Origin: Marsupella aquatica
Lineage: Eukaryota > Plantae > Marchantiophyta
DNA length: 64,000 nucleotides
Reading direction: 5' to 3'
Assembly: GCA_973895155.1 (NCBI GenBank)
Contig: OZ316897.1
Location: forward strand, 22,171,455-22,235,454
Shown here: one piece after another, positions 6,850 to 36,060 of the stretch
How the letters are laid out: each line of letters starts with the position of its first letter
How positions within the stretch are numbered: the first letter of the stretch is position 1
Made by a program: the position numbers and the translations under genes
Notes under the pieces: model-generated
Seen by the model: the letters and a program-made list of their open reading frames with translations, nothing else
What the model was told of the DNA's origin: nothing
The model's database searches: none

Positions 6850-7344
6850 ATTGACATTAGAGTTAGTCATTTATGGCAGAAGTCCATAATGACAATATGT
6901 TGTTGTAAACACTGATACATTCTCATTTTCAGATTGACCCTAAATTTTGTCATTTAACACCGTTGGTTAAAATGACGATAATACATTTTTTGTCATTTAT
7001 CACCGTTGTCCAAAATGATCCAAATAGATTTTTAGTCATTTCAGTCATTGTCAAGAGTGACTATAATGTTGCTAAACACTGATTTATCATTTTTGTTATT
7101 AATTGTGTCATTTAAGACATGTGTCTAAATTGACCATTTAGGGAAATTGGGTCATTTTGGTCGCATCAGTCATTATAGACATTATACAAAATGACGAAAA
7201 AATTAACATTTTGTCATTTCAGTCTATTGGTCATTGTGGACAGTCATTCCCCTGTCATTCTTTTTGTGTCATTAAAACTTTTGGTCATTTATTCATCTCT
7301 GTCATTGGGTGATTGGTCATAAAGGGCCCTGTTTTCTTCTAGTG
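6850..7344. mobile_element. Right end of a CACTA/EnSpm DNA transposon (TIR + subterminal repeats)
   Basis: Ends in ...GGGCCCTGTTTTCTTCTAGTG, i.e. CACTAGAAGAAAACAG on the reverse strand; many GTCATT/AATGAC subterminal motifs in both orientations; cuts off the MTase frame (the ORF tail TRRKQGPL is TIR-derived). Confidence 0.85.
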
Positions 7345-10300
7345 TTCACGACTTCAATAGTGAAAGTCAAAGTCCCCAATGTTCCCAATTGGCCTCCAAT
7401 CGGTGGTTGAATCTCTAGACCTTTGCCGCCTTGCCCTTCAATCTGTGCTTCATCATATAAATTCCAGTTTGACTTTAGAGTCATAATCCGATGTCTCACA
7501 AAATCAATCTGCGCAGCACTTTTATCAACCGCACAACCCTGGCGAGAATTGAGAAGAGCCGCAGCTAACATGGATCCGGTTCCGCAACAAAGATCCATAA
7601 CCCAGTCATTTTTCTCCGAGAAATGAGTAACAAACCAAGCACCCAAACCAACAGGCTTTTGGTACGGGTTCACAACATAGCCCAACGGATCAACAGACTT
7701 TTTGGTTACACATGGAACCTTAATGATATTGATGTGAGACTCATCCGGTTGGAAATTGTACATGTTCATGTTTCGGATGCCTTCCTCGCTGTAGAATCCC
7801 ATCGACCAGTTTTTGAAACCCCACGCCAATCGAGCACCGGCGGGACGCTCATGAATGTTGACCTTCTCCCAAATTCCAGACTCAACCCCACAGTTGCACA
7901 CAATCTCGAGCGCAAACATGACCATATTTGTTCCTGTAATGAATGGATCACAACAAACCTCCACTGCTTAGCAGCTGTCATGTTCGAAAAACTTCTCACT
8001 ATATCTACAACGTCCTTTTCCGTGAAGGACACTTCATCAAACTCCGAACCAGGCGCATTAAAACCATACGGAATGTCGGCAACGGCAAGAGTGTAAGGTT
8101 TTCCCTCCACAAAAGAATCCAAAATTCAAACATCCCCAACATGGAGATAGTAAGAGAAAGAATCTCCGTTAGCATTTTTCCATATTTGCTCCACGACTTC
8201 TCGTGCATCCTCGCCTAGCGTCTGGAGCCGGTTGTACCGATCAATTGCAGCAAGCACAAAATTCTTGAACACATACGGGATGTCAGCGGAGGGAACAATA
8301 ACCTCCCCCGCCGAATTATATTGCACAGGCGGAAGAACTTTATTTTTCCGCTTCGACCCAATCTTCAGCTGTAACAAAGGTCGCACAGAATTCCAATCAG
8401 AATGAAATTGCTTAACGAATATGAAAGCCGTTAAAAATCTTGGGAATGAAACGAGTTATGCAAAAATGTACTGATGGAATGGCAAGGCCGATAAAAATCT
8501 CGCGATGATTTTTGAATGGAACGAGGAATGCAAAAATCTACTAATGGAATGGCAAGGCCGATAAAAATCTCGGGGAGAGACAGGTGCTTACCGCTTCGCT
8601 CAAGTTCTCTGCCCATGTTCCTAGGACGGAAACATCCATCTCATTTGGAAACATTTCTCTGCACGTTGCCCAGTCGGGCTGCCCAGATATTTGCAAGAAT
8701 AATTTCTTCACCTTGGAAAGTTTTTTCAGCTTTTCCCCTTCCTTGTGCATTTGATCCAAGGTGATCACTTTCCCAATGACCCTATTCAAGAGCTGCTTAA
8801 CATGCTCCTTAGTTGACTGTCCTTGAAGACCTCAAAAAGTATTTAAATTGAGGTCACCTGCAAGTTTATTCATTTTAATCTCTTTCAGTGTTAAAGGTTT
8901 AACCTTTCCCTTTGCATTTGTTGTTGCCAAGATCTTTTTGGGTTGTCCCAAGACAGTCCCCTTCTCCCACATCTGGAAAACTTTCTCATGAAGATCCCAA
9001 ATTTCACCCGTTCAAAAAGCAATCTGGAATGTTGGGACATGTTTGGCCATGTTGTCACAAACACCGGGAGTGTATTGCAACATACATTCCTAACAACAAG
9101 CTTTGCGAACATCCTTGTTTGATCCTACATCCATTTCAACAAAGATATTGTGGCACGCACGAACTCTATCGATAAGAGTCATGTTCTTCCTATACTCCTG
9201 GTCATAATTGTGCTGGAAGCCCAACTTCTGGACCTCCGACTTGGTAAGTCTTGCATATACCCAAGCTTCCAGCTCACCATAAATCTGCTTCCCATACATT
9301 TTATACAACTCGGCCTTTGCCCGAGCACCATGATTTCCTCCAGTAATTCTATACTTCCATACTCTGGACTTTAGAATGTCCCAATCCTTGATTGTGGGAC
9401 AATCCTCCGGATCCACACACAGCACAAACGGTGCGCTAAAGTTAGTGGGGTTTTTCCTTAGAAGAATCTTGATATTCTCCACATGCAATTTTTCCACTGG
9501 TCTGATCAAAGTTGACTTCTCTCCAGCTTCATCAAAAATTAAATTGTTGACATGCAATAGGACAGTTGTCCTTTGAACCCTTCGCTGCATCAGCAGACTG
9601 AGCTCCGCTTTGATGGCATCAGTCTCATACATCGAAAGAGCAGTCTCCTCCTCTTCATCAATCTAGAAAATGCCGTTTGAAATTAGATTACGAAAGAAAC
9701 AGCAAGATTTTTATCGGAATCCTCTTTCGTCAATAGAAAATCAAAGTTTGGTAGCACTTACCGATGGAACCTCGGCTTGTATATCTGAACGAGGCAAACG
9801 CTCATCAAGCACCGGAGGCTCCATATTGATCGGGGCTTCCACTCCTTCCGGGGCTGTGGATAAACTCCAGCCTGTTCTCTTTCTCTTAACGCAGACTCCA
9901 GAACCAAATGGCCCCGATCCCTCAGATCCTCTACTCTCGCTTACATTTATGTAAGGCGCTTCCGAAATGCCTAAACCTGCACCGGCTGCACGACCTCGAC
10001 GATTGCCGCTGCCCCTTCTCCCGCCCTTGGAGGGACCAGCAACATCTTCCTTGATGTTCCCTCTCCCTCTCCCTTTCCCCCTCCCCCTTCCCTTCCTCGA
10101 ACCACTTTTGGGCTCGTCCAAAGCCGTACCTCCAGCGCTTTTTGCCGATGAAGCTCCACTCCCGTTAGAACCAGGCCTCTTAATAACTATTTTCCGGATG
10201 GGTCTGAATTCTTCACCTGTGAGCCTCTTGTACTCTGCGTTCACCCTTGGTAGCATGATGAGATCACAATCTTGGACAAACTGGCACACCCAAGCTGGGC

Positions 10301-10360
10301 CCATAAGATTCATTACTTTTGCTGACCTAACTTCCGCGACAAGCGCGTCTTCAGGGTAAC
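7345..10360 (-). pseudogene. Gene A, 3' portion: ParB/Srx-like domain + beta-class N6A/N4C DNA methyltransferase (element Y)
   Basis: ParB-like YRITGGNHGARA; MTase motif IV-like LAVADIPYG, then NPYQKP and motif I-like VMDLCCGTGS (PF01555-type order); phase-0 GT-AG introns at 9663-9761 and 8369-8591 join the ORF pieces in frame; several in-frame TAG/TGA stops and a frameshift near 7930. Confidence 0.85.
8427..8572. repeat. Three copies (60-70 bp spacing) of GCCGATAAAAATCTCG, a variant of the Y palindrome, inside an intron of gene A
   Basis: Copies at ~8427, 8487 and 8557; the last two lie in a ~70-bp tandem duplication. Confidence 0.7.
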
Positions 10361-10385
10361 ATCACCCTATTCATTAAAACTGGAA
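10361..10385 (+). repeat. Left TIR of element X
   Basis: 23/25 match to the reverse complement of 28384-28408. Confidence 0.88.
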
Positions 10386-11073
10386 TTTCTCTAGTCCAAA
10401 AGTTGACGTTTAAATCTATTATTTTACACCCCAAAATTCTATAACTTTGTCCCCAAAATCATACATTTTCGTGGCCAAATGTACACTTTTTAAAGTCTAA
10501 ATTTACAATTGTAATGCTCAAATTATTAAATAACTAAGTTATTAATTATAAATATTATTAATTAAAATATAAACATATACAAATATAGAATAAGACAATA
10601 TAAGTTTGACAATACAATAAATTCAAATGATAACATTAAAAATGACACACTCTAACCAAGGGTCATGAACACGGAACTCCAGGAAAACAAGTGATGTATT
10701 ATAAAATTATAAAACCTATTTTTACAGGGTCGAGATCACATTGACCCCTATATAGGGTCCAGATGGTTCTGACCGGTTGTTGAATGCATATCTGTAAAAA
10801 TCTATATGATGACCATCTCGACCCAAATGGAGGGTTCACATAATTTTGACCCGTTGTTGAATGTATATCTTTAACTTACTATTCTTTCTGTACAGGGTTA
10901 AGACCCGAATAGACTAGCCTTTTTATGAGTATATATCTATAAGTAAAACCCTATTTCTTCAGTAGAGGGTCAAGAACATTTAGACCCAAATGGATGTTAC
11001 GGTAAGCTTCACGCTTTCCTACAAACATATACCCCTAACTAATAATCAGTGTTTGGTGTAGGGTCGAGATCAT

Positions 11074-12333
11074 CTAGACCCAAATCTCATGATCCTCCTC
11101 CCCGCAGAATTCATTTGAGCAAGTAAATCTAGACCCTGACGGGTCATATTTCATATCGCGATTGCAAAAATCCAGAGGCTTTCTATTCCAAAACTTAGTC
11201 GTGAGGTCTCTAGTCCTCAGAACTTCCGAAACAAATGCCAGATGATTGTCTCTATAGGGTCTTGTATACTGATCCCCAATTAATGTCCTTATAAGGTCCT
11301 CGATCGCCTCCTCCGTCAATTCCTCAATTGGTGGCAATTGTTGCACTTCATTCTTGATATCCCAGGAAATTTTGTCCGCTGTAACATCCAAGACTGTATG
11401 GATAACAGTGGGAACCCATACCATACTACCCCACCTCTCCGACAACAGCGCATAAATGGCAGCCTGTTGATCACTATCCGATAAAACATTGATCATAGAC
11501 CACTTTGGTTGATTGATAAATAGGTAGTGTTGAAGATTGAAGGCATGATACAATTTCCTCAGCAGAGGCCACAGTATTTCGGGAAAGAAAGTATCATCCG
11601 TGGAGTGATGCAAAAATGAAGAAGGGAACAACCCACAATTCTCTGGATTTGCAAACGCCTTCATTGGAGAGTCATCAAGGAGGAGTGTATTAGTCTCATC
11701 GTATAATAAACCATAACGTTTCCAAACAACCCTCAAATCCTTCAAAAGAATATTTGCATTTCCGTCGGTGACGTCAGGCCTCTGGATTCCAGTGTCAAAT
11801 GTATCTTCTTGCGTCAGAATAAACTTGAATTGCTCTTGCTCTTCTTGAGTGAAGATCAAATGAATCATTTCATTTGCCCTGGGCTTTCTCGCACAAGTCC
11901 AGATGGCAACATCAAATATAGCAAAAGTTGCGATTAAGAACTCGTGAAGATGGGGACGCTCAACATACATAAAGTTAAATCCTCCACGTCTCCCCCAATG
12001 AACACCCTTGACACTTGTGGCACTTCGGCGCGGAGTTCTAACAGAATCCCAACACATTTTGTTGAGGTCAAGAATCAATAGCTTCCGTCTGATTGGACCG
12101 TGAAGTGGAGGCAAGGGTCCTGCAAACAAGAGACACCTATATTAGAATTGTGTGAGACAGAATAAAGGTAGGCTAGAGATGATCTCAAGCATGAACAGTA
12201 AATGAACAACAGTGCGCGACAAACCTGCAATTGGCAGAAGGGCAGATGTCAAAGAATGTGGAAAGCTTCGGAGACTATTGTCGACGCAATCCACAACTGG
12301 TAATGGCCCGCCTATCTCTGTGAAGGTAGACAT
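11074..12333 (-). CDS. FCP1/SCP (NIF)-like HAD phosphatase-domain protein; exons 12333-12225 and 12119-11074
   Basis: RKLLILDLN, ERPHLHEFL, FDVAIWT, LLKDLRVVW and NTLLLDDSPMKAFANPEN match the NIF fold signature; a phase-1 GT-AG intron (12120-12224) joins the 63-aa and 351-aa ORFs; motif I reads DLN instead of DxD. Confidence 0.8.
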
Positions 12334-12339
12334 AATAAT

Positions 12340-15300
12340 TTAGATGGCTGAATTTGAGGACTGAAGGTAGCTTGGGTTTCAACGTCACTTGCTGAAAGAC
12401 CCAAATTCATCTAGAAGGTTATCTCCTAATTGGTTTTGGATGTCCAAATTGATCCCTCCAGGAAGCGTTTCAACAAGAGCTGGCTCAGACTAGACTGGCA
12501 CTAATTTGAACTTATTTTTCCTATAATCCCTGGAACGCATAATCTTCTCAGCCTGATCTACACTGACTTGTTCGCCTTTTGATGGACCATGAATCCACAC
12601 ATAATGAGTAGCATTAGCTTTGAGAGATTTGTAACCAGTTCTACCAATTTCAACACCAGGTTTCCTAACAAAAGGGAGAATTACGGGGCTTCCAGTAGAA
12701 GAATCTATGAAAACAAGCTTATCCTCTTAAGCGCAAAACATTTGGTCCAAGGGAGAGGACGATGCACCTGCCTCGTCCTGAGGGGGAGTTGTGGCAGGGG
12801 AGCGACAAGCTTTCTTGGTTGAAAGGATCTCATCGAGTCGAGGTGGGCTAGGAATTGGGTGGCTGGCAGCGTCCTGCAAGGTGGTTTCCCAACCAACATC
12901 CAAGTTCGAAGACTGTTGCTCACGTTGTGCATCCTCTGCATGAAATGCGTCCCTCGAAGAAGGTACACCAGGAAGCTCGAGATCATCTCGACCATCATTT
13001 ACCTCATTAAATTTGGGCAATATTTCACCCTCCTCTTCCATGTAGCTTGGGATTTTGGGGCCCTCTATTTTGCGATGCTCCAAATTCTCCGCAAAAACTT
13101 CCTCAGAAACACTCGCCTCAACTGGAGCTGGAATCGAGGCCACTTCTTCCAAAACAGTAAGGGGACCGGCTTCAATGGCCTCAGATGGCAACGACTCTGG
13201 GGGTGGAATATATAAAACATGGCGGTTGTCATGGAGGCTCGCGCATAAGCTTTGATGAATTCCATCTCTTGAGCTGTGTCAGAATAAACAAAACAATCCC
13301 GACCAACAATGACGCAAGCTTTGAGGGTCTGCCCTCCGGAGAAGAAGTCAAGCACTGTGTGACCAGTGCTGGAGAAATAATCAACAAGATGCTTTGTCAT
13401 TCGTATAGGTTTAGCTTTGGGGTTTACAAAGCCCCCTCTCCAACCGACCATCTCATAAGACGGGGCCATCTTCTCCAATACTTCGACATCAACTCCAACT
13501 TCATCCTGCTTCTCTTTCCCTCTTTGTTGATCCTTGCTTTTCCCAGCGGAAGACCTCATCGGTAAGACGGTGAAGTCTTTGTCGTACTTAGCACTGTAAT
13601 TCCAGAACGCATAAAAATCATCGAAGAAAATTTGGGACCAGTCAGGCTCTTCATCACAACAAACTCCCCCAAAAATGATAGTGTCCCGTGCTCCTATGAG
13701 AAAGTCACCTTCCTCCTTGGGTACATCTTCACGGTAGTAACTACCGTACTCGAGCTTAGTGTGGACTTTCTTCTCATGACGGAACTTCTCGAAGGCACTC
13801 TGAATCTGGCCTATTAAAGGGCCCTGACGGACAAAAATAATTGCCAAAAACTCGGTTGAGTTAGACATCTCCACACAATATTCCAACAAGACAAAAATCT
13901 CAGCATCTGTCCACTGATGTTGTCGAATACGACCAAAGTCGACAAGGGCAAGTGCGCACGTATTATGAAAGGGTCCAACTGATTCCGGCTTCATCGTCCT
14001 CATAAGATTGTCGCTTAAAAAACTGCGATAAGGAGTATCCACCATAGCAGGAGTCCCACCAAACGTCTTGCAGTATATCTGCTCAAGCTTCACAATGAGA
14101 CTTTGCAGAAATGGTTCTTTGGCCCTATTTCTCTTTAGGAGATTGGACAGCCAAACCTCCCCAGCGAGCTGTCTCAGTTTTGGCAATTCACCGTGATCTA
14201 AAAATGCTGGCAAAAATTGAGTTAGCTCAAACCAAGTAAGTGAATCGGAAAAATGTTCGGGATACTTTAAAACGTAGTACTCCACAATTTTTTCCCTCAG
14301 CTTTGTCATGACTTTAAACGTGTGGGCCATGTCACTCATTGATTGAACATCAGATTTGTTCGCTGGGTCTTTCTTCAATAGAACCTTCTGATGATGAACG
14401 GCGGTGAACACCTTTAGAATGTCCTCACTACTGAGGTCCCCTTCAAAGCATCTAAACAATGCCGGTGTAATCATTTTTGTTGTCCGGCTTTTCCCATTCG
14501 TTTTTTAACCTAACTCACCAAGTCCATCAGGAAGAAGCCCCTTGACCCAATCGATGCACATTAGTCTCCAAGACTGGAACAGTTTCTCTTCCGAAAACAA
14601 CAACCAAAAAATATTCCTCAGGTCGGATTTTCTAATCGTTATTTTGGCCAAAGCCATGAAATCCTGATCCAAAGATAACAACAAAAGTCTGAGGCTCGAG
14701 ATGGTCTAGAGGTAGAATGAAGAAACTATGTTGAAATTTATTGAAAAAGACTTGAATACAAAAAATTGACCTCGAGGCTCGAGACAATCTCGAGCTAGAA
14801 GTGGATTTGAGTTCAAATATACCTGGAACTTTTGATGATCCATTAGTCTATTGGACCCAATCACGGGTCTCTTCATACGGCCACACTCGTCAAACTGTTG
14901 AGGGCATGGACCATAGTATCAAGAAAATAGGACTCATACTCCATTGTCTTGTTAACTGCATTTGCCCTTTATGAGTGTTGAGCAAGTATTGTTCTTGGAG
15001 TTTTGTCCGAAAGAATTCATGACTTTCGAAGCTGAAGACTCTTGGCGACCTCCTTCAACTTTGCATTGCTCTTAGACCAACCAATGATCCAAACTGCTGC
15101 CTTGGCCAAGTGTTGTCCACTAATTGCAAGGAATTGCACCTTCTTATTCTTCACACCCCACTCGAACTCCTTTCGATCCTCAGGAGTATTATCATAATGG
15201 AGCAACTGCGAACTCTCTCTTGAATACGGAATTAAATCCGCCACAGTTGGTACCATTCCAGGGTTTCTAACCATGGATTTTGCGATCTCCATGGCATGGT

Positions 15301-17787
15301 CCTTATTGAACATCCTATATACCAAAACTGCAGAAGGTGAATCTATACTAGTGACAGGAATGTCAAAAGTTTCATTCATGCCAAATGTGTAATACTCCTC
15401 AATCTCCTTAAGAACTTTGGCTCCTTCTTTAACGCTCTTTTCACCCGGAGCATCTCCTGGAGTGCCATCATCATCGGTATGTGCAATCACACTCGAAGAA
15501 GATGTCGGAATGAGATCTACCTTTACAGGCGCAAACTTTTTCTTAGGCGGAGCCTTCTTCGAAGCGCTTTCAGGTTTCTCAACCCTTTTCCTCTTTTGCA
15601 CCACCTTTGCCTCCTTCTTGTCCGAGCTTGACATCTTATCTCCTGAAGCTCCTGATTTCCCTTTACCTGTTTGTCTCCGATGACACAACACCCACTTCTT
15701 ACACCCTTCCTCGTCAAATTCACCAGCTCCAAAAACAAAATCAGGGGAAATGGATTGAAACTCTCCCACCTTGGAATCTGACATTATTCTCAAAACCTTC
15801 CAAGTGAAAGGAGTCGTGAATTCATTGTCATGATCAAAACCGTATTTCCGGCAATACAAGAATCCAAAAATTATATCTGCCCCAGTCATTTTGGACTCTT
15901 CCAACAGATTACTGGCAGTAAATCCATCGGGGAAGAATCCCATTGGTATCACGCTCAGTTGTTTCCTAGGAGCACATTCAATATTAAGATCGCACGAGTA
16001 GTTCTTGGAGTGAAGCCTAATGAGAGCCCATTTCCCACTCTCATGGTTCTCCACCGTCAAGACCATGTCCTTACCATTACTTGTGACAATGGAAACAACA
16101 GGCCCAAGTAAGCTGCAAACTAGAGGTTCGGTAGATGGAGACCTCGTCTTCAAACAAATAACTGACCCCTCCATCTCCTCAATTTCAGCTAGCTCAATGG
16201 CCCAACAAAATCCTATATCAGTTTGTCCAAGGCACAAAACCTCAAGGGCATGTTCATCTTCAACAATCAAATTGGGCAATCCCAATTTTGCACCTGGAAA
16301 AAATGAAAAATAGACCAATTGTCAGAATCACAGAAACGAGAAATCCCGTAAGAGGCTCGAGACGATCTCGAGCTTCCCTCACCCATTAACATAGTTGAAC
16401 TCAAATAAGTACAAAACCGTTGTTTCATGGCCAGATGTATTTGGGGGGAGGAATTGATTCTAAAATATCATAAACCCACCTACCAATCACCTTTTCGAAC
16501 CCCAATCATCAATGGAAACAAGTTGGAGGGTATTTCACAATCTATAGATGGCAAGCATGGAATACAATGGAAGCTCGAGATGATCTCGACCCTAAATTCA
16601 TGAACAATACTTTAGAAATAGAATACAGGAAGAGTCAATCGTGGCTAAACAGTCAACATTATCTAAATCTTTGCATTGTCATATTTTGTCATAGGAAAAC
16701 ATTGATTCTCAATTATGAGAATCTCCATCGAATACGAACATCATACTCAAAAGTTGACCAAGTTTACGTCTAACACCGACTTCAAAAACTCTCTAACTCG
16801 GGATGATTTCCATGATCAGAATGAGTTGGAGAGTACAGAAGTCGTTGACAGAAGCAAGCTTGGTCAACTTTTGATAGGATGTTGGTTTTCGACAGACGTG
16901 GTCTTCCATACACAAAAAATCTGACAAGGCAAAAATTTAGTACATTGTTGATGAATTGGATATTTTAATACTTGGGTCAAGATGATCTCGACCCAAGTCT
17001 CTAAAAGTTAGAATACAGAGACTCACAATTGGCATTGGTTCACCGTTAACTAAATCTTTGCATTATCATGTTTCTTCACTGAAGACATTGATTCGCAAAT
17101 ATGAGAATGTCGATCGAATACGAACAACATACTCAAAAGTTGTCCAAGTTTACCTCTAGCAAAGGCTTCAAAAACTCTCTAACTCGGGATGATTTCCATG
17201 ATCAGAACAAGTTGGAGAGTACAGAAGTCGTTTTCAGAAGCAAGCTTGGCCGACTTTTGATATGATGTTGGTTTCCAAAGGAGATTGTTTTCCATCGGAA
17301 ATAACAAAACATCCGTCAAATACGAACAACATATTCAATAGGAATCTAAATCTGCCTTTTCCATAATCCCTTTTGGATATGCTGTTAGTATTTGACAGAT
17401 ATAGCATGACAGATACATCAACATGAAAATGACAGAAACCTCTTAACTTTGTGGATATTAGGCTCGAGACGATCTCGAGCCTAATCTCAGTTACAAACGA
17501 TAAACTTGTTCACTTTGAAGCCACCTCTTGAAGCAAAGTAATGCAAAAAATATCAATCGGCTCGAGATGATCTCGACCCTCAAGTGGATCAAAAACCAAG
17601 TATGATTTGAAGCTTGAGATGATCTCGAGCCAAACCTCCATCTAACAATGAGAAAAGATAATATATTACGTTTGATTGTGCGGTGGATGTTCTGCGATGA
17701 ATCTAGAAGGGTCTGAAGCTCCATCGCTACAGTTGATGCGTCGTACTCGGCGAAGTTATCCTTGGAGAAATCTACAACGGTCGACAT
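12340..17787 (-). pseudogene. Gene C: second ParB-like + MTase-like gene with degenerate catalytic motif (element X)
   Basis: ParB-like VQFLAISGQHLAKA in ORF 15017-16318; MTase C-terminal half NPKAKP...FSSTGHTVLDFFSGG in ORF 13065-14474; LALVDFGR at the apparent DPPY position; phase-0 intron 14664-14822; probable first exon from ATG 17787; several stops and frameshifts; both ends approximate. Confidence 0.72.
16570..17290. repeat. ~390-bp tandem duplication, each unit starting at an X palindrome
   Basis: Shared blocks such as TTCAAAAACTCTCTAACTCGGGATGATTTCCATGATCAGAA at ~16781 and ~17167. Confidence 0.8.
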
Positions 17788-17999
17788 GGCTACTGGATAG
17801 TGGATACTAGATCTGGGTGATATAAGAAAAATATTATCTCGAGGCTCACAGGAAAATCTTGATCCAAACGGCTATAAAATATCTTGAGGCTCAAAGGGGA
17901 TCTTGACCCTAAACAAGTCTCGAGGAAAAAATGACGATCTAGAGGCAAAAGCGACGAAATATCTAGAGGCAATAAGCAAGAGGCGAGTGAGGCGCGGAG

Positions 18000-18290
18000 G
18001 GGAGGTAGGCAGGGAGGCGAATGTGCAAATGAGGGTGGCGACGTTGTGAATGTGGACTATAAGCCGCTCGGTCGGCCCTGAGTCAGGCTAGGGTGCCCGG
18101 CGACGGATGCCTGGCCACGTGTAGGATGCCACGCGCCCATGCGTGGGAGTGAATCTTGAGTTGAGTCATGATGACGGTGCTGTCACACGTACTGTCATTA
18201 TTGCGGTCCGTACTTCACCCTGCCGCTAGTTCATCCCTGCCATTGGTTTGACAGAGCCATCTGGTCAGGCAGGATTTTATATATTGCTCG
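18000..18290. promoter_or_regulatory. Probable divergent promoter between gene C (-) and the transposase-like gene (+)
   Basis: GC-rich island with CACGTG (18116) and TATA-like TTTATATA (~18276), followed by a pyrimidine-rich 5' UTR-like tract; the flanking genes point away from it. Confidence 0.4.
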
Positions 18291-18942
18291 TTTTTCCTCC
18301 CCACCGGGTCATTCTTCAGATATCATTTCATTGCTCGCTTCCTGCTCCCCTCATTCTCTCTCTTATCCCTCTTCCTGCCCCTGCCTCTCGCTCCCTGTTC
18401 TCTGGCTCTAGATTTTTTCTCGAATCCCTTTCTCTCTCAGTTGTTTATTTGGTTTTGGAGACATTCTCATTTGAAGCCATGAAGTTGGTCTAAAATAATT
18501 GAACCCATACCTTTTAGAATACCAAACCATTTATGCTTAAAACATTGCCACTCAGAATCCATTTGTGATCCTTTTCTCTTTTTTTTGAAGCTATTTCTCA
18601 TTAGTCTTCTATAAGCCTACTTTATGTATTTCAATGTCAAACTTTTACCTCTAGATCATCTAGAGCTCCTCAATCATAACAACATATTTTTCAATTAGAG
18701 TGCCATTTGTGGCTCGAGATCGTCTCGAGCTTTAGGTATCTTCCTGGGAATTGTCTATTTTTGTTTCTAGCTCCTTTAAATCCACAAGTATTTAAGTATC
18801 TTTCCTTCTCTTGCGTGAGTTCATGCTTCTCTGAGGAGTTATTATGAGCTGTTGTTTCTATGCACTTCATAGTTCTTCTTCTAGGGTGGATTATTGATTG
18901 TTGGAAGTATAGAATTCCCTCTTCATGTGGATTTTATATTCT

Positions 18943-19176
18943 ACCTCGAGATTGTCTCGAGCTGAAGACTTTGTTAATCTATATCTCATGGTTTTTGTGG
19001 TCCATTCTTTACCTCGAGATCGTCTCGAGCTGAAGACTTTGTTAATCTATATCTCGTGGTTTTTGTGGTCCATTCTTTACCTCGAGATTGTCTTGAGCTG
19101 AAGACTTTGTTAGTCTATATCTCGTGGTTTTTGTGGTCCATTCTTTACCTCGAGATCGTCTCGAGCTAAAGACTTC
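18943..19176. repeat. 68-bp tandem repeat (~3.4 copies), each with a CTCGAGA-N3-TCTCGAG palindrome
   Basis: Units start at 18943, 19011, 19079 and 19147. Confidence 0.92.
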
Positions 19177-19260
19177 TTAATCTGTTACTGCTAGTTCAGT
19201 TGGTTTATTTTTGCTAGTCACTTTACCTCAAGATCATCTCGAGGTACAACAGCTTCCTAT

Positions 19261-20480
19261 TTGGAACATCTTTTCCAAATGGGGATATTCTTTCGAGGAG
19301 ACGAGGTTTCCCTCTTACTTGACGGAGTTGAAGTTGCCTCTGGAACAGTCCTTAAGGTTGACCTTGGTGACTCAGTGCGTAACGTTGATTTGGGTATTAA
19401 TCGTATAGGAGTTCTTATTGAGAGGTGCTATGATGGATCTCGAGAAATTCCATTCCCATTGCCACCGATCAGGACACTTTTTGATGTTGTAGACTCCTGC
19501 ATTATTTGGGATGCCTCTTTTGCATATTTGAGGTCACAGTCAACTCCAGTGATGACACAAGTGGATGCTACATGTTCTACAAATGATACATTTCCCAATT
19601 GCTTACCTGAAAAATCTGCGGTGGGAAGTTTGGGAGACTCAATTATGGATGGCAATGAAGTGGAGCTCTCGATTGGAAATCAGATTGTGTGTCAAGGATT
19701 TGTATTCAAGACGAAACCCGATGAGACTTGTCACAATGAAAGACTTGGCCCTGATAGGATTAGTGTGAAGATATGTGAAGTTGTTCAAGGAATGGAGAGG
19801 TTACCCTTTCCGCACGCTGGAGCCGATACCGTTCAGGAAGGATTGGACAGTTTTGTAATCTGGAATTTAAGGAATGTTCATCGGAGGAGTTCTTCCCATG
19901 ATTTACTAGATGAGCCGTCCGCACAGGATGTTTTTGGAAATTATAATTTCAAAGATTATAGTTTGCGTTCGAACTGGATGGCGGAGGAAGTGGAATTGTA
20001 TGTTGATGATAATCGGACCAAGGTCGGGCTTGGCATCATCACATTCCTTTCGAGTCTGGTGCCATTGATGATGAGGTTCTTGGGCCAAATCACGTTGGGG
20101 TTGTTGTCACACACGTGATTGACCCTCAATTTTTCCTGAATATCTCCCCCGGAGTGCCGGGTCTTGTTAGGTGGGCCATCCGTTCACTTGTGCTGATATC
20201 AAGGGGGATTTTTCTTCTGGATCTCATTGGAGAGGTTTCTCCCGAGCCAATTATTGATGGTCGAGATTGTCTAGAGGTAGATATGAATGGTCACACTAAG
20301 TTTTCAAAACGGCCTTATAATTTCATCAAGAGAATGAAGGGAAACCCTGATGAAAAAAGGAAGAAGCACCTGGAGTCGAGGGCAATTCTGAAAATCACAG
20401 AGGAGGAAATTGATTCCATCCAAAGAGAAGGTTGTTGTAAGTTGAAGTGTTGCCTCAACATGCCGAGAGAAGACCTTATG
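19261..20480 (+). pseudogene. 5' part of the element X transposase-like gene: three tandem Tnp1/En-Spm (TnpA C-terminal)-like domains followed by a CCxxxCC segment
   Basis: Repeated EVxL...V(A/C)xGxV...LGxxR(I)xV...LPFP...W units; frameshift near 20070; GCCKLKCCLNMPRE resembles, from memory, the N-terminal region of DUF7869-type bryophyte transposase-like proteins; fused directly to gypsy protease sequence at ~20481. Confidence 0.55.
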
Positions 20481-23400
20481 GGGAGGAGACGTAGAAGAAG
20501 GTTACCCAAAGTTGGGATTGACCCCATACAAGTCAATTGGGTCACAGAGGATTTGGGTGCCCCAGAACTCACAATAGACATCAACGGATGTGCAATACGG
20601 TTTGTACCGATGGATGGTGGTTCGGGAATCAACATCATGACTGAGGAGACAACCAATCAATTGGGGTATACGGAGTTAGAGCCACCGGCACGTGCCATGA
20701 GGCTGGCTGATGGGGCACGGGTGGTGCCGCTGGGGTGTCTCACCAAGATTCCAACAATGATTGGGGGAAAATCTTTTCCCCTCAACTATTTGGTGATGCG
20801 ACCCGTTCGGCCGTACGGTTTTCCCATCTTAATTGGCAGGCCATGGTTGTATCTGGCCAAAGTGACGAGCGATTGGGGCAAACGGCAGTTTCGGTTTGGA
20901 ACCCCCACTATTATCATTCCCTGGTCAGCGGAGTCACCTCAAGGGGAGACTACCTCTATGGAAGAGCAATATGATTCAGAGGTCACCTCAGAGGAAGATG
21001 AGGATGAAGTATACATGGTGAAGCTGATTTCTCATCTAACGGAGGAAGATGTCTTTGGTCCACAAGCTGCTACCTTTGAGGAGGGAATTATGGAAGTACC
21101 ACTTGACCAGAGTTGTGTTGTGCAGAGGAAAACCAAGGAAGAGCCACCTACACCACCCCTGGCCCAGCTTATTGATACTCAAGAGCAGGAACAAACGGAG
21201 GAGGAGGGGCAGGAAGCTCAAGCCATTCTGTTTGACAATGAACGAAGGGAGGAGTGGCTGAATGACCTCTTAGATGAAGAATTTAGAGAGGAGCTACTGT
21301 CACATTACAAAGAATCTGACGTGGAAGAAATGATGGCCCATGTGGCAAAAGACCCACCCCCAACTCGGCCAGACCAGGAGGAGAGTGATGCACCTGTGTA
21401 TGGAGGGATGAGGCTTGCACGGCTGGAGGAGACCTTTGATGAGGAGACACGCAACAAGCTGGACGTGATCAGGCCGGAGCAATACACAAAGGTGGAGGTG
21501 GGTGAAGGCAAGACACTCAACATTGGCAGCAAGTTGGATGCTACGGAGCAACACACCATTCAGAATACCAAGACGTATTTGCGTGGAGCCACCAAGATTT
21601 GAAGGGAGTGCCACCTGAGTTTGGTGAGCATAGCATTGACTTGATGTCAGGAGCCCGGCCGGTGAGGCAACGCCAATACCGTCTCAATCCCAAGTACTCA
21701 CTCATGGTGAAGGAGGAGATTGACCGTTTGTTGGATGCAGGCTTCATTTATCCTGTCATGCACAGTGAGTGGGTATCACCCATCGTGATTGTGCCCAAGA
21801 AGAAAGGGGCAGACGGTAAGGTGAAGATACGGGTGTGCTAAGATTTCCGGAAGCTGAATGACGCCACCAAGAAGGATCACTATCCACTGCTGTTTACTGA
21901 CATTGTGTTAGATATGGTGGCCGGTTGGGAGATTTACAGCTTCCTAGATGGTTACTCTGGATACAATCAAATCTGGATACGGGAGGAGGATCAACTCAAG
22001 ACGGTTTTCACCACGGAGTGGGGGATTTTTGTATTCCGTAGAATGCCTTTTGGGTTGTGCAATGCCCCTGGCATGTTTCAACGACTCATGATGAATATAT
22101 TTCATGACTTTTTACGGAGGTTCTTGGAGATCTTTATTGATGACTTTGCTGTCTACGGCAAACAAATCAAGCACCCTAAACACTTACGGTTGACTTTTCA
22201 GCGGTGCCAGGAGACTTGCTTGAAGCTACATCTTGAAAAATGTTTTTTTGGAATTGAGGAGGGGACCCTATTGGGCCACAAGGTGTCGGCTCGTGGAATT
22301 GAAGTTGATCGTGAGAAGGTAGCCGTGTGGGTAGCAGTCTCGTTTCCCAAAAACGTGAAGGAAGTGAGAGGGTTCTTGGGGTGCGTTGGCTACTACCGCC
22401 GCTTCATCAAGGACTTTGCCAAGGTAGCCATGCCACTCACATCCATGTTGAAGAAGGGAAGTGAATTTGAACCTACTCCTTCCCGTCAAGCTGCTTTTGA
22501 TGAACTAAAGAAACGTTTGCTAGAGGCTCCCGTACTCATCACGCCTAATTGGAATAAGGAGTTTCACGTTTACGTAGACGTATCCGGGTTTTGCATCGGT
22601 GCCGTCTTGAGTCAGTTGGATGAGGATGGGAGGGATCATCCCATCTACTTTGCCAGTAGGCAGTTGGCCCCGGCAGAGAAGAACTACTCACCCACCGATA
22701 GGGAGGCTCTTGGTATCATTTACGCTTGTAAGAAGTATCGTCATTATTTGTTGGGTTACAAGGTTGTGTTCCACACGGATCACAACAGTTTGAAATACAT
22801 GGTTAACAAGCCAGATCTGTCTGGGAGAATTGCACGATGGGTCCTCTTATTACAGGAGTTCAACTATGAGGTGAGGGTGAGATCCGGGAAGAGTCACAGC
22901 AATGCTGACTTCTTCTCCCGTATTGAGGGACCATCTGACTCTCAAGAGATTGATGATCGTTTTCCCGATGAAGAAGTCTTCAAGGTGACTACAGAGGCCA
23001 CTACTTGGTATGGAGAAATTCTTGAATTTCTCCGTACGGCCAGGATTCCATTACGATTGGGTCCGGAACATGCAGCAGTGTTCTTACGTAAGACGGGGCC
23101 CTACTTGCTTGTGAAGGGAGTACTTCACAAATACGGCATGGATGGACGCCTTCGTTGTTGTTTGGAGGAGGCTGAGATACGTACAGTCATGGCGGCACTA
23201 CATGAGGAAGAAGCTGGTGGCCACTTTGCACGGGAAACCACCGCTAGGAAGATACTGGATGCGGGATATTGGTGGCCCACACTTTTCCGGGATGTGCACA
23301 GGTACATCCAGAGATGTGACCCCTGCCAACGCCAAGGCAGACCAGGGCCCTCCTCCCGGCACCCATTGGTGCCCATACTTCCCCTTGCACCATTCGAGAA

Positions 23401-24340
23401 ATGGGGGGTTGATTTCATTGGTCCCTTTACTCCCATTACACGGAGGGGGAGGAAGCGCTATATCATATTGGCCACGGACTATGCCACCAAGTGGGTGGAG
23501 GCCAGGGCAACAGCAAAGGATGATGCCAACACCACTGCACGGTTCTTGTACGAGCAGATTTTCACACGGTTTGGGCCACCCTTGGAGCTTGTGAGTGACA
23601 GGGGTACTCACTTTCTCAATCATACGATTGAGCGTTTGACGGAGAACTACTTGATCTCACATAGGAAAACCACTCCGTACCATCCACGAGCCAATGGGCT
23701 CACAGAGAGAGCAAATGGGATCATGGGCAAGATCCTTAATAAGACGGTATCAGCTCACAAGACAGATTGGGATTTGAAGTTGCTGGCTGCTACGTACGCC
23801 TACAACCTGGCTCACAAGACCACCACTGGCCACAGCCCCTACTTCCTTGTGTTTGGTCAACACTCTCTTGTGCCGGTGGAATTTGAGGTTCCCACCATTC
23901 GAATCTTAACACGAGAAAGGGAAGGGGAAGAAAGTAGTGTAGCTGCACGGATCCAACAGTTGGAGCAACTTACAGAGGTACGAGAGGAGGCTTTGACGAG
24001 CACGGAGCAACAGCAAGGCAAACAGAAGTTACACTACGATTCCCATCTCCGCCGTGTGTCCATTGAGGAGGGAGATTTGGTGCTCCTCTATGACAGTCGT
24101 TTCATGCATTTCCCGGGGAAGCTACATACACGTTGGATGGGGCCCTACATTGTCGATGCAGTCTACTCCAATGGGTCAGTTCAGCTCAAGACGCTGGAAG
24201 GGCAACTACTCAACACATGGATTAATCAAGAACGCCTGAAGAAGTACTACACGGAGGAGGAGTATGGTGCTCGCGGGGGCGCTTCGCAATTAAGAGAGGA
24301 GCTATGTGACGGGGTCCCCGTCTCGAAAGGTCATCATTAG
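20481..24340 (+). pseudogene. pol: pol of gypsy copy 2 (frameshifting deletion at ~21563, TAA at 21839)
   Basis: ORFs 20115-21602 (3' part), 21599-21841 and 21905-24340 are collinear with copy 1 Pol. Confidence 0.92.
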
Positions 24341-27018
24341 GAGTTATTGGCAAGATGCATGTAAATAAATAAGCCAATATACATAATAGTTTTTCAATTT
24401 TTTTTAATTTCTTAAAAGTTAATCATCCCGGTGTGTGTTCATGTTGCTCTGGAGGGCCGGAGCTATTTGAACCCGGGAGGAACTATTTTTTTAATTGACC
24501 TTTTGCTCTCTTGGGTCTTGTCGTTGTGGGAGAAGAAAATTAGGCATCTTAAGGGGATACCACTCATTAATATTTGGAGACCCCGGCAGTTTTTCTTGGC
24601 CCCGGTATAATATGGCAGAGGAGCCCACGAGCCGTGGGGCGCGAGACGGAGGGTCGCCCTGCGAGTAGGCGGAGCCCCGAAAGGGTCTTCCAGGGCGTAA
24701 GCGAGGGGCAGCCGGGAAGGAGGAGCCCACGAGCCATGGGGCGCGAGACGGAGGGTCGCCCCGCGAGTAGGCGGAGCCCCGAAAGGGTATTCCGGGGCGC
24801 AAGCGAGGGGCAGCCGGGAAGGAGGAGCCCGCGAGCCGTGGGGCGCGAGATGGAGGGTCACCCCGCGAGTAGGCGGAGCCCCGAAAGGGTCTTCCGGGGC
24901 GTAAGCGAGGGGCAGCCGGGGAGGAGGAGCCCGCGAGCCGTGGGGCGCGAGACGGAGGGTCGCCCCGCGAGTAGGCGGAGCCCCGAAAGGGTCTGCCGGG
25001 GCGTAAGTGAGGTGGCAGCCGCATGGAAGTTGACTATGGGTAACACGGGGAGGATTGGGAATTCCCTACCCTTTGTTTTTTTTCTTTGGTTTTTTTTTGT
25101 TTCTTTGCTTCCTTCTCCGCGCGTGCAACTCCTTTCTTGGCCGAAGCACTCTGCCCTCATTTCCGAAAGCAATTTCCCCAAAGTCGGAAGCTCTCTACCA
25201 GCTCTTACACTTATTTTCGAAGCTCTTTCTCATGGTCAATTGTTGGGGCTTGTGGGCATGATTCTTCCGGGCATTAGCGGCAGCAGCACGGAGTGGCTTC
25301 TGAGGGAATTGAGGGTAATTGATTGATCGGGATACGGGGGCCGTTTCGGGCCAGGGGATTGACATTGCTACGGGTGACGGGATTTGGTGATTGAGGATTT
25401 GATTTCTGGATGCATGGATGCTGGATCAACCGGAGTTTAGTGCGGCACGCGTTCGGAGATACAAGGCTGCTTACCGTGACTACATTGAGACATTGATTGC
25501 AAGAGCTTAGAGAAGAAGCTCAGGGAGGTACATAAATCGTTACGAGAAGCTCAGGTCAACACGGGGATCCCGGGGATGCCACCCCGATCTGTCACCCCTG
25601 GGACTCCCATGGCCACCGGGCAAGTTTTACCGTTGGAGTTGTGGTCCAGTGAAGAGGCGGCCTTATGGAAGGACACCATTGGTGACGGGTACATTAAGGC
25701 GTGGCAAGCCTTGGCCAATTTGAGGAAGCAGGGGAGCACTAGCACAAGGAGTACCCCGGTGAAGAAGAAGAGGAGTGAAGTGGCACTCACTCCAGTGGAG
25801 AGTGATGAGGAGGCCCACTCACGGGGCTCAAGCCAAGGCACCGTGAGTGAAGAGGAGGAGGATTAGAGTGGTCGTACGGACGTGGTTGTACGGCCCCTTG
25901 ACTTTTCAACTTTTTTGTGAGGGGTCACTCACGGGCTTGTTGGAAAGAGCTCGCGGAGCTGATTCCAACAAGAGGCGGCGCTCCTCAAACGGAGCCAGGA
26001 TGAGCAGGTTAGGGCCCGACGAAGTTGGGTTTATGGGATACTAAAACGGCCATAACTTGGTCCTCCGATGTCCGTTTCAAGAGCGGTTGAGTGATTCATG
26101 ATCAGGGGGAGCAAGGCTACCCAGGGGTGAGCTCAGAGGTGAAATCATAGTGACACCTAGTTTTGGCAATTGTGGGGTCCCTTGCATTTTCACGGTTCAC
26201 GGAGCGACGTTGGGGCGCCGTCGAAGGCACCGTCGGCCCCATTTTTAGTTTAGGGTTTTAGGAGCATGTGTGTGCCGCATGCTTTAGGATTAGGGATTCC
26301 TCATGGACGGTTTTAGCGGCGCCGCTAGGTAGCCGCCACCTTTGTGACCCCGTGAGGGGGCTTTGGTGTGTTTGTTTCTAGTATTTAGGGGGAGAGCCCC
26401 GGAGTAGTGAGGGGGGAACTCAGCGTAGTGCTTTGATGCTTTTGAGTAGCTTTTGTGAGTAGCGCACCGATTAGGTGAAGTTCAAGCCAGAGTAGTGAGG
26501 TGGAGAACGTAGCACTTGTCCTAGGGAGGCAGGAGTTGGGCAGACGGCAGGAGGCCGGATTGCCCTTGCATGTGTTACGGGAAACACCAAGAGATATGGA
26601 TTTGGCTTGAGGTTCCAATATTTTGTGTGTCACTTGTTGTTGCTTGTGTTGTTTGTTTTCCTCCCCTAGTGCATGTGGTCGGTTTCGTTATGGAAACATT
26701 TGCCCTTGTCACTAGTGTTCAAACCTTATTGTAAACGTTTGTATGCTTGCCCATGAGAGGGGGGTGGTGACAGCACTCACCCGATGGGCATGAGTTGTAG
26801 ATGGTAGGACCAGTCCCTTGGACTTGATCAAAAACGGAGAGACCAGTCGGTAGACTTGATCAAAAAGTACACTTCTGGGAGTGGAATCAAACATACTCAT
26901 CCTTAGGTATGAAAATCCTTCAAATAGCGTCCCTCCACGACCCCGTAATACGATACCAACGGTTTAAGCGAAGAAAAGTACGATTTGCACGTATTAATCG
27001 TTGGATAGGCAAGTGATA
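24305..27018 (+). repeat. 3' LTR of gypsy copy 2 (2714 bp) with an internally deleted LTR-ORF remnant (~25434-25866)
   Basis: Homologous to 38884-43223; MPPRSVTPGTPMATGQVLPLEL... is shared with the 617-aa ORF. Confidence 0.88.
24619..25010 (+). repeat. 102-bp GC-rich tandem repeat (~3.9 copies) in the LTR
   Basis: AGGAGCCC starts at 24619, 24721, 24823 and 24925. Confidence 0.92.
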
Positions 27019-27022
27019 ATAG

Positions 27023-27688
27023 TTGGCATTGACATATGAGTTTTGGCCAAAAACCAACCACGGAACTGGTTACAAGGTGAATAGTACAGGAACCTCTGAA
27101 CCATTGGGGGAACCTAGTAGTAGTACACAGAATCCAGAAATGGTGGAGCTTCAGAATGAGTACCTTGAAGAGATGGAGGATCAAACTGCACCATTTGTTG
27201 GCACTCGACACGAGCAAGAACTTGCCCGTTGGATTCCTCTCCAGGACATTCAAGAGGGCCACTTTGTATTTCTTCGTCCAGAGGATGAATGGGAAAAGAA
27301 GAATGGCAAAGAACTTTTTTGGTTGGTGAGAGCTTTGGGTGTTGTGGACCCAAACCATGAAATCCCTTCAGGAGACTTGCAATGCAATAACAATATTTCT
27401 ACTAGTACAAGGTATGCTCCTATGTTCCAAGTGCAATGGTGGAGGCCTAAACATGGTAAACATGATGCACCGGATCATGTGCGATATTCACGTTGCTTTC
27501 AGACCACTAAGACTTGGGAGATGGATCCTGGGTTTGATAGTGTCACTGAACGTTGGCAATTTGCTAATTCTACTATGTATGGATTCAAGTCACGCTCTAG
27601 AGAAGAAAATATAATTGATAGAGGTTTGACCATTCCCAAGAATGTTTTGAAAACACTCAAAACCTACATGGAAGGGATTGTTCATTAA
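27023..27688 (+). pseudogene. 3' part of the element X transposase-like gene
   Basis: FWP...IQEGHFVFLRP...FWLVRA...FQVQWWRP resembles, from memory, the C-terminal domain of DUF7869-type bryophyte proteins; same strand as 19261-20480 and resumes right after the LTR end. Confidence 0.5.
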
Positions 27689-28383
27689 GTCAAATTAAAG
27701 TTTTCTAGTAGTCAGAGTGAGGGAGTCTAAGTATGTCAATTGGTTTGTAATGTCTTAGTTTACGTACTAGTTGGTTACTAGTGAATCTAAGTAACTTTTA
27801 TAATATTTTGGGAGACTAGTTTGAATAGGTGGGCAGGAGGTATTAATTGGACTTGGCCGGATACCTTTATATTAATTGCTTTAATTATAATTACATAATA
27901 CTATCTGACTATATTACAAGAAGTAATATTCGTGATGGGATGTGACTGCCTCTAGTAAACCTTAGTTTCAACTCGAGTTGCTTACTGTAGAATGTACTAA
28001 CAAATTAGTTAGTTACTTGAATTAATATGGATAGATACCATTCTGACAAGTTTATAAATTAATGCTTTCATTTATTACGTAGAAGGTTTAGCTAGGGTCG
28101 AGATCATATTGAAGTTAGCTTTAGTTATATTATATTACTTACTTACTAGTTAGTCAGATTGAATCAATTTTCTACTTCTTATCCAACATATTTTACATTA
28201 TTATCACCCAAATGTTTTTCTTTAGAATCCAAATTAATATTTCATTTTCCCCTATATACAATCTTGATTCCCCAAATGTACATGATCTTGTGCCCAAATA
28301 TACAACTTTCACTGCCCAAATGTACAATTCTTGTACCCAAAAGTATATATTTTGGTGCCCAAATGTCCAAAGATCAAAGAATT

Positions 28384-28408
28384 TTCCAGTTTTAATGAAT
28401 AGACTGAT
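28384..28408 (-). repeat. Right TIR of element X
   Basis: Reverse complement matches 10361-10385; followed by TSD TAAC. Confidence 0.88.
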
Positions 28409-28790
28409 TAACTCTCAAGGGATTTCTCAAGAAAGTTCTCCATGGTGACAATGACAGAGGTGAATCCCTTGCCTCCACACATTGTCAAGAAACTCAGACC
28501 CTCTTTCAACACTTTTGCCTCTCCCTGGCTAATCAAGTACTCACAGATCGCCACACCAACAACGGGGCCAAACGAGAGAGTAACCTTTGCGGATTTTTGC
28601 ATCTGGACATAAAGGATAGGAGACTCACAGTCTGCCATATCCTTGGATTGTAACCTGGTGTTGCGGAGTACCACTGTTTCTTGATGAACTTGACCTCTTC
28701 ACAAATGTCTTTGCTTGTCCAAATCGCGTTCGTGAGGCTTGTCATGAGACTTTCAGCCTCGGCAGATCCACCCTTCCCACTAGGACCCAT
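28409..28790 (-). pseudogene. Gene A, 5' portion (probable start MGPSGKGG..., frameshift near 28650)
   Basis: ORF 28408-28674 joins in frame to the sequence below 10360 once X and one TSD copy are removed; a TTTTCAG acceptor lies just upstream of ATG 28790. Confidence 0.7.
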
Positions 28791-29128
28791 GATGACAAAG
28801 TCTGAAAATTTGAATGCAAGGAGCAATAAATTTATCGCTCTGACAAACCCAAAAACCAAAAACCGGCATGCAAACATCGATACAATGAACTCAAAAAGTC
28901 CTCATTCACGTACAAGCATTAGGTCATTCCACGAGCGATACCAACTCCGATAAAATTATCGCAAACAAATATGAGCACGATATAAATTGACGGCCGAGAT
29001 TACATTATCGTACGTGTCAACATCTAAAAATGAGACCAACACCAATAAAATTATCGCAAAAGTGGTCCAAACAAAAAGTGAGCCTTCTTTAAATTGACAA
29101 CCGAGTGTACATGTGATAATGTGCCTAA

Positions 29129-29708
29129 TCAATCATCCCACCCAAGATCAAACCGCGCTACAGCAAAGCGAGAGATTAGCTTCTTGGGCCATTGGGGTAT
29201 ATGAGTGATCCTATGATCATAGGCCCATAGCCAATGAAAATCTGTGGCACCGGTCTCAGGATTAACTACAGCTACTGAATAGCCGCGTGACGGAACGTCA
29301 CAACAGGCATTTGTGCAACACTGACACATCTCACCATTGTCAAGGACATTTGTCCATAAACAAGATACATAAGTTAACCTAAATAACGGACAAAGAGGCC
29401 TAGGGGGGAGTTGATGAGTCCTATACGAATATAACTTCCCACCAGTGTCAATCAAAAACTCGGTAGCAAGAGGATTGTCCAGCTGGTCAATCACATCCTG
29501 AATCTCATCAAATGCTCTACGTCTGTTGTGGGCATAGAATTCTGGTTCATAGGCAGGATTGCCCTTCACAACATGACAGCAGTGCAGTATAAAATGTTTT
29601 ACTGCACCGGTTTTAAGAAAAAGCAGGATAATACTTCTAGAAAATGCAGCATATCTATCCCACCGGATATAAATTTCTCCCCCTACCTGGTCTACGTAGA
29701 AGTGATAT
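29129..29708 (-). pseudogene. Unknown gene of element Y, split by the solo LTR (5' part from 34323 to ~34360-34469)
   Basis: Frame stays open from the TSD to 29129 (YHFYVDQVGGEIYIRW...CQCCTNACC...); no recognised domain. Confidence 0.45.
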
Positions 29709-35348: not shown

Positions 35349-35388
35349 GAAGCAGAGCTACCAAAACCACCAATAAAAGTACCTTCAA

Positions 35389-35872: not shown

Positions 35873-36060
35873 TTGTCACTATACCTTTGATCCACCAAGT
35901 CCAATCGACCTTTCGTTGTGCCTCCTAAACCCTGCAGCACTGCGACATCATAGAGGAAGATGAGTCTCCAAACAAAACAGAGGAAGATGAGTCTCACAGG
36001 AGGGTGCGATAACTTTATCGCACCTCGCATTCATCTTGAAGACATGACTCCCTCACACAC

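Follow-up and report, generated by a model that had tools for sequence, protein, structure and literature searches.

Dispersed palindromes of a giant liverwort transposon as candidate binding sites of its accessory protein

Element X is a giant DNA transposon within a 64,000-nucleotide stretch of contig OZ316897.1 of the liverwort Marsupella aquatica (assembly GCA_973895155.1, forward-strand positions 22,171,455 to 22,235,454; the whole stretch is here called the window, and all positions refer to it). Dispersed over X are copies of a long palindrome, which are probably family-specific candidate binding sites of an accessory protein encoded by gene C of the same element and likely serve self-recognition or anti-silencing, as described for the VANDAL transposons and their VANC proteins. 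They look like maintained sites for a dimeric, element-encoded protein on the grounds of their symmetry, an information content of about 28 bits, independent flanks, a non-coding location, arms that do not co-vary, and a second, mutually exclusive palindrome in the surrounding element Y.

The palindromes of element X

The core TCGAGA-N3-TCTCGA occurs in 10 exact copies in the window against 0.02 expected, and in 22 copies against 1.97 expected when up to 2 mismatches are allowed; 20 of the latter are in X proper, one is in a Gypsy remnant nested in X and one is outside X. The full site is about 19-21 bp long and reads (R)SSTCGAGA-YNR-TCTCGASS(Y). Its 19-mer, SSTCGAGA-N3-TCTCGASS, has 19 copies with 0-2 mismatches, every one inside X, an exclusivity that applies within the 64-kb window. 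Three other copies (10728, 10968 and 28096) have 3 mismatches each and are regarded as weak, because two matches beyond X (30184 and 53705) attain the same level; 10726-10744 and 28094-28112 are identical to each other at 18 of 19 positions. A pattern stripped of its CG columns still gives 19 matches in 64 kb, all 19 in X; 200 Markov shuffles of the left part of X gave 0.0 matches on average. The palindromes of X and Y are the two most frequent spaced palindromes of the window. An earlier note on this DNA had reported about 20 dispersed copies restricted to X. All 20 of its positions coincide with the 19-mer within 0-2 nt, and copies at 12172 and 18648 are added here; the restriction stands for the 19 better copies; the three weak ones are no closer to the motif than the two matches elsewhere.

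Ungapped flank identity between sites is 33%, against 29% at random positions (171 pairs, with the tandem array taken as one copy). Gapped comparison of the flanks divides the 22 sites into 15 groups, and the sole set of recent tandem copies is the 68-bp array at 18944-19148. The flanks thus mostly differ, as had been noted earlier, and descent of all copies from one recent tandem array with conserved flanks, the outcome named there as fatal to the idea, was not found. A single recent tandem origin of all sites was rejected in view of the 15 flank groups. An old duplication of about 400 bp has left paralogous sites at 16573 and 16975; within it, 17 of the 19 positions of the site are kept and the adjacent bases contain indels.

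Coding exons, as inferred, account for 60% of X, yet 20 of the 22 sites are located elsewhere (binomial p 8e-7); with the array collapsed the figure is 17 of 19 (p 1e-5). The exon set includes a guessed first exon of gene C at about 17669-17790. Predicted gene C introns hold nine sites; seven are upstream of the transposase, four are near the ends or the gene C stop codon, and two are coding. The intron at 14664-14823, with GT-AG junctions, does contain the two sites that had been assigned to it. In one sequencing run (X4), deep joints at 14728->16570 and 16375->18928 adjoin sites, with sides of 20-22 nt; these joints were not used as evidence.

This distribution also bears on the proposal that the sites are bound by the transposase of X, for example by its repeated N-terminal domains, either regulating expression or building a transposition complex over the long element. 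Seven sites cluster directly 5' of the transposase frame, the two near-identical weak copies are about 300-370 bp inside each end, and sequence-specific activation by a transposase has been reported (10.64898/2026.08.24.746577, in its accessible part). Such a role is nevertheless unlikely, given that nine sites are in predicted gene C introns, distant from the ends, that the different motif of Y is placed in the introns of the ParB-like/methylase gene of Y, and that the ends of X already have their own 22-bp repeats. These end repeats are likely the transposase sites, distinct from the palindrome; being the natural candidates for transposase binding, they are counted in favour of gene C. The transposase N-terminal part gave no match in Pfam, and the label of TnpA-like domains formerly attached to this region is not supported.

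It is quite unlikely that the sites are captured host transcription factor sites that serve as enhancers of the element. They are non-coding and lie close to what is likely a divergent promoter (about 18000-18400), and the AGAT and GATC words of the core presumably resemble motifs of plant factors. About 28 bits with rigid spacing would, however, make a long site for such a factor; the remaining 46 kb of the window lack the motif, and the neighbouring element Y has a different palindrome.

Complementarity of the arms (100/114) shows no excess over the null value of 98.4, and the half-sites vary independently, which fits recognition of double-stranded DNA by a protein. Hairpin co-variation was accordingly rejected, and since the arms lack co-variation, selection for a hairpin is unsupported. 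That the palindromes are RNA or single-stranded DNA hairpins, or else neutral leftovers of a small repeat, is thus very unlikely, even though every perfect site could fold into a stem of 8 bp closed by a 3-nt loop, a gene C intron folds with a z-score of -2.16, and four copies form a recent tandem array. Compensatory variation was not found in the arms, CG columns or flanks of the X sites, Rfam gave no match, the flanks fall into 15 groups, and the z-score is presumably what two palindromes alone should give.

The arm dinucleotide in 32 half-sites (array collapsed) is CG in 22, CT in 5, CA or TG in 4 and AG in 1. The ratio of observed to expected CpG (o/e) is 0.39 within 50 nt of the sites and 0.57-0.73 at 50-800 nt. 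A CpG-rich halo at the sites was therefore rejected, CpG being scarcer near them than farther out. Over X the ratio is 0.5-0.7, falling to 0.31 at the right end, and decay has gone no further in X than in most neighbouring sequence; the strongly depleted parts of the window are a Gypsy element at 1-3620 (0.10) and the region 4000-6800 (0.31). It had been proposed that many copies keep their CpGs despite decay of neighbouring genes. Retention is confirmed by the 22 of 32 half-sites, whereas the contrast with a decayed surrounding is not, and protection of sites relative to flanks is contradicted by the comparison above.

Gene C and known systems

Gene C is spliced, with GT-AG introns at 14664-14823 and 12122-12226, and is encoded on the strand opposite to the transposase. 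Its main exons comprise a ParB-like region, a helical domain and a domain like beta-class amino-methyltransferases, and match a relative of 1009 amino acids (P0085) in three stretches by tblastn. Three homologous open reading frames (ORFs) end near one point at the intron 14664-14823, so that a shared intron position there is consistent with the data. Relatives of gene C amount to 78 matches among 1.84 billion representatives. The methylase-like domain matches Pfam N6_N4_Mtase (PF01555) with E 1.6e-4, below the gathering cut-off. The structural model of P0085 is confident for the helical domain and the beta-class amino-methyltransferase fold; the latter resembles PvuII (Foldseek E 1.6e-6) and CcrM (Z 17.1, root-mean-square deviation 3.4, 216 aligned residues). 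The helical region (258-456) is well modelled, and the fold matches are dominated by the methylase domain.

Active amino-methyltransferases possess motif IV, (D/N/S)PP(Y/F/W), and motif I, FxGxG, and the X clade lacks both. In a 58-row alignment, all 25 rows that cover its motif IV position have D/E-F/L-x-R/K/Q/W there, its motif I reads DFFSGG, and a DPPY-like motif is found in 0 of the 78 search matches; for these reasons the protein is most likely a conserved pseudo-enzyme. It is accordingly highly improbable that the sites are targets (TCGA or GATC) of an N4/N6 methyltransferase of the element, whose mark would protect or label it. The beta-class fold, the CG retained in 22 of 32 half-sites, and the DIPY and DLCCGTGS motifs kept by the enzyme of Y speak for such a role; against it, besides the degenerate motif IV, a 4-bp target needs no 19-bp palindrome, and the TCGA word is lost in 5 of 32 arms, where the sequence is TCTAGA. 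The interpretation of the sites as amino-methyltransferase targets, raised in the earlier note, is not supported, given the D-F-x-R sequence at the DPPY position.

An FCP1/NIF-like phosphatase exon likely forms the end of gene C. Riccia sorocarpa R1sor_016354 fuses methyltransferase-like and NIF domains; P0085 and another relative, P0005, end before the FCP1-like exon.

The position of the cytidine triphosphate (CTP) box in the ParB-like region reads SGQH in 7 of 7 rows (alignment A4). Box II of ParB is GERRxRA (PMC10653881, accessible part), and judged from sequence X lacks the arginine patch of the CTP clamp. The ParB-like region resembles the fungal DUF3723 (Atlas similarity 0.94), a conserved cargo family of Starship elements (10.1101/2021.12.13.472469, accessible part). 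The likeness, at 15020-15460 (-), makes it worth asking whether Starships, too, possess palindromes that differ from family to family. As for the idea of operator or parS-like sites of a dimeric element-encoded protein, the features of the sites fit it; strict identity with parS is not supported, with SGQH at the box and no ParB assignment by hidden Markov model or fold.

Four published systems are compared with X, each as presented in the accessible part of its source. Sola1-1_Ec32 of Ectocarpus (PMC12477816) is a giant DDE transposon of 21.5 kb with a 4-bp target-site duplication (TSD) and terminal inverted repeats (TIRs) of 282 bp. Its accessory gene, opposite the transposase, encodes a ParB-like and N4/N6 methyltransferase protein proposed to bind and modify its own element; the accessible part describes no binding motif, and the string 'palindrom' occurs 0 times in the main text. 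X is likewise giant, with a 4-bp TSD and an accessory gene of the methyltransferase family on the strand opposite the transposase, but differs in its land-plant host, degenerate methylase motifs, likely fused FCP1-like domain and 25-bp TIRs. The red algal Plavaka elements (10.1101/2025.02.11.637652) are giants of 17-19 kb with a ParB-domain protein (PAG3), a methylase gene of family PF01555 and, as proposed binding sites, inverted repeats in arrays. Unlike X, they have an EnSpm/Plavaka transposase, and with regard to PAG2 and PAG3 the ParB domain is fused to a 2-oxoglutarate oxygenase and the methylase is a separate gene; their repeats are tandem arrays beside the gene, whereas the sites of X are mostly dispersed singles with unrelated flanks.

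In Arabidopsis, VANC binds family-specific motifs in the introns, spacers and tandem repeats of VANDAL elements, and its effect on methylation is proven (PMC5735166). X resembles this system in having family-specific motifs enriched in the non-coding parts and tandem repeats of the element; VANDAL elements differ in being Mutator-like, with non-palindromic motifs of 8-9 bp, and no Pfam family was seen to be shared by VANC and gene C. Finally, VirB is an anti-silencer of the ParB family (PMC10653881). X is like ParB/parS in that the arms are about one helical turn apart, which would suit a dimer, and unlike it in that GERRxRA is replaced by SGQH in X and by GGNH in Y, with no ParA partner seen. 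X works like these systems, but its protein has the motifs of neither an active methylase nor a CTP-clamp ParB.

A similar design is thus already published for giant transposons of algae. In the accessible parts of PMC4738411, PMC8885841, 10.1101/2021.02.12.428880, PMC4455052 and PMC9033089 element X is not described, and no such sites in liverwort transposons were found in the literature outside subscription papers and bioRxiv supplements, of which those on Bostrychia may describe repeat motifs. New with respect to the literature searched are the land-plant host, dispersed sites of defined sequence, the likely union of a pseudo-methylase with an FCP1-like domain, and the nesting of two elements neither of which has the motif of the other.

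Element Y and the weighing of self-recognition

X interrupts the ParB-like/methylase gene of element Y by its insertion, and the two elements are likely related. Their methylase domains are homologous (hhalign probability 91% between Y and the X clade), and the motifs of Y, DIPY and DLCCGTGS, are near-canonical. Y has its own palindrome, CGATAAATTTATCG, with 16 copies at up to 2 mismatches and 0 in X; the core of X at up to 1 mismatch has 0 copies outside X. Copies of CGATAAATTTATCG are located in the predicted introns of the ParB-like/methylase gene of Y and in a 56-bp array. Y therefore serves as an internal control, with a homologous methylase domain, a different palindrome and similar places (introns, tandem array), and supports the assignment of the X sites to gene C.

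Under this assignment, a dimer of gene C protein would dock on each twofold-symmetric site and thereby mark the element's own copies, most likely keeping them transcribable or regulating them, as VANC does for VANDAL elements. Sites would have spread by local tandem duplication, after which selection would keep them while their flanks drift, and a sister element with a different version of the protein would keep a different palindrome.

Several points weigh against this assignment. That gene C protein binds the palindrome, that it does so as a dimer and that it counters silencing are inferences, and the pairing of motif and protein is drawn from two elements in one window. The ParB-like label comes from a G-Q/N-H motif seen by eye and from the Atlas similarity to DUF3723. 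The ParB-like regions gave no significant match in Pfam, PHROGs, NCBIfam, PADLOC, PDB sequences or tblastn against phages and plasmids, and those of X and Y gave no significant alignment to each other; the model of this region of gene C is unusable (predicted local distance difference test score 35). This copy of gene C has several stops and frameshifts, and the transposase is broken as well. The SS positions of the sites are slightly over-complementary (28/38, p 0.02 uncorrected), and the CpG halo that an anti-methylation role might leave is not seen. In a search for homologues with a ParB-like region among longer proteins, 0 of 554 candidates were found.

A broader proposal, offered tentatively and on balance doubtful, is that of a lock-and-key code in the giant transposons of liverworts, in which the ParB-like/methylase protein of each family would read its own long palindrome, convergent with VANDAL/VANC and built of bacterial parts. 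The methylase of the X clade would then have lost catalysis and serve as a reader or scaffold, joined to a phosphatase of FCP1-like type acting on the host transcription machinery, and the Y clade may still write N4-methylcytosine or N6-methyladenine at its own sites.

Two algal genome papers, in their accessible parts, propose that ParB-methylase proteins bind and modify their own transposon and name no defined motif. The window offers a pair of candidate operators in nested land-plant elements, and each goes with its own version of the protein; with two such candidate pairs, the idea is directly testable by cross-binding. If true, this would be a second, independently built system of sequence-specific self-protection in transposons after VANC, and would show a bacterial methylase fold put to a use that does not involve its chemistry. 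It may also be a source of long, orthogonal DNA-binding modules.

Boundaries and further features of the window

X is a TIR cut-and-paste transposon in which TIRs, TSD and an empty site are all present. The TIRs are 25 bp long and 92% complementary. In 4 of 4 public runs from 2 studies, contigs show the empty site as a joint 10356->28409 that leaves out 18052 nt and has 4 nt compatible with either side; the best of these runs may be the source of the window itself. In summed contig depth, which is not a copy number, the coding parts of X far exceed the bridging contigs, a hint that the X family is abundant. No loci related to X were found with transposase or gene C queries in the viral and metagenome contigs scanned. 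The 4-bp TSD is that of the Sola superfamily, and the DUF7869 transposase is one that we take to be Sola-like; a search found no literature on DUF7869. The 221 C-terminal residues of the transposase share 62% identity with a Calypogeia fissa protein bearing PF25273. Such relatives in Calypogeia and Riccia would by themselves point to a liverwort as host. The catalytic core is lost where the Gypsy remnant sits, and a transposase relative (P0002) matches only by residues 260-466. Coordinates are given in Table 1.

Table 1. Coordinates of elements X and Y, their genes and their palindromes
Feature	Position	Strand	Basis or remark
Element X, cut-and-paste DNA transposon, 18,048 bp (~11.5 kb without nested Gypsy)	10361..28408	.	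Empty site, TIRs
Left TSD TAAC	10357..10360	.	Sequence; joint with 4 common letters
Right TSD TAAC	28409..28412	.	Sequence; joint with 4 common letters
Left 25-bp TIR and 22-bp subterminal repeats (CCCAAATGTACA type)	10361..10510	+	Tandem repeats 10412-10460
Right 22-bp subterminal repeats and TIR	28254..28408	-	Match to left-end repeats
Gene C main exons: ParB-like region, helical domain, beta-class amino-methyltransferase-like domain	12227..16295	-	tblastn of P0085
ParB-like region of gene C	~15020-15440	-	By eye
FCP1/NIF-like phosphatase exon, likely gene C end	11074..12121	-	Pfam NIF E 1.7e-17; splice signals
Likely transposase N-terminal part (three repeated domains by eye, then CC..CC cluster)	19195..20510	+	
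Nested Gypsy remnant, borders approximate	20511..27020	+	Pfam matches to reverse transcriptase, RNaseH and integrase
DUF7869 (Sola-like) transposase C-terminal part	27023..27688	+	Similarity to Calypogeia fissa protein
Palindromes 10728, 10968 (weak) and 11062	10728..11080	.	11062 overlaps stop codon of FCP1-like frame
Palindrome in predicted gene C intron 12122-12226	12172..12190	.	Motif scan and splice signals
Perfect palindrome within gene C coding linker	12975..12993	.	Motif scan
Palindromes 14694, 14777 in gene C intron 14664-14823	14694..14795	.	GT-AG junctions
Six palindromes (16355, 16573, 16975, 17462, 17560, 17612) in predicted gene C first intron	16355..17630	.	
Seven palindromes 5' of transposase frame (18648, 18712, 68-bp tandem array 18944/19012/19080/19148, 19226)	18648..19244	.	
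Palindrome in coding linker of transposase N-terminal part	20259..20277	.	Motif scan
Weak palindrome ~300 bp inside X right end, near-identical to outermost left copy	28096..28114	.	
Y ParB-like and amino-methyltransferase gene (3' part), interrupted by X	7317..10356	-	Has stops and a frameshift
Element Y continuation with own palindrome CGATAAATTTATCG	28413..36567	.	
Y palindrome CGATAAATTTATCG copies	28824, 28948, 29043, 34760, 36007, 56-bp array 36098-36378, 36461, 36554		
Degenerate CGATAAATTTATCG copies in Y intron	8489, 8559		

The ends and the transposase of Y were not found in the window. Copies of CGATAAATTTATCG often have GAATG about 7 nt upstream (8489-46243), and further copies are found at 46024-46230 in a 74-bp repeat; since the palindrome recurs there, Y or a relative may extend beyond 46 kb. 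Dense GTCATT/AATGAC repeats at 6860-7320 are possibly the subterminal region of Y. Two ORFs in the Y region, 34800-35357 and 29129-29716 (-), are respectively weakly F-box-like (E 0.069) and Cys-rich with no family match.

Elsewhere in the window, the pol ORF of the Gypsy element at 1-3620 is open over 1204 codons despite a CpG o/e of 0.10, and related copies at 20.5-27 kb and 37.6-43.2 kb have ratios of 0.57-0.8. An element of about 1.5 kb at 44272-45809, with long inverted arms of 24-bp repeats containing CCGAT, resembles miniature inverted-repeat transposable elements or foldback elements. An intronless ORF for a short-chain dehydrogenase at 54678-55913 (-) (adh_short, E 1.6e-21), which we take to be fungal in appearance, may reflect horizontal transfer or mis-assembly. 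Finally, 58084-58879 is occupied by a degenerate tandem repeat array with periods of 17, 35 and 71 bp.

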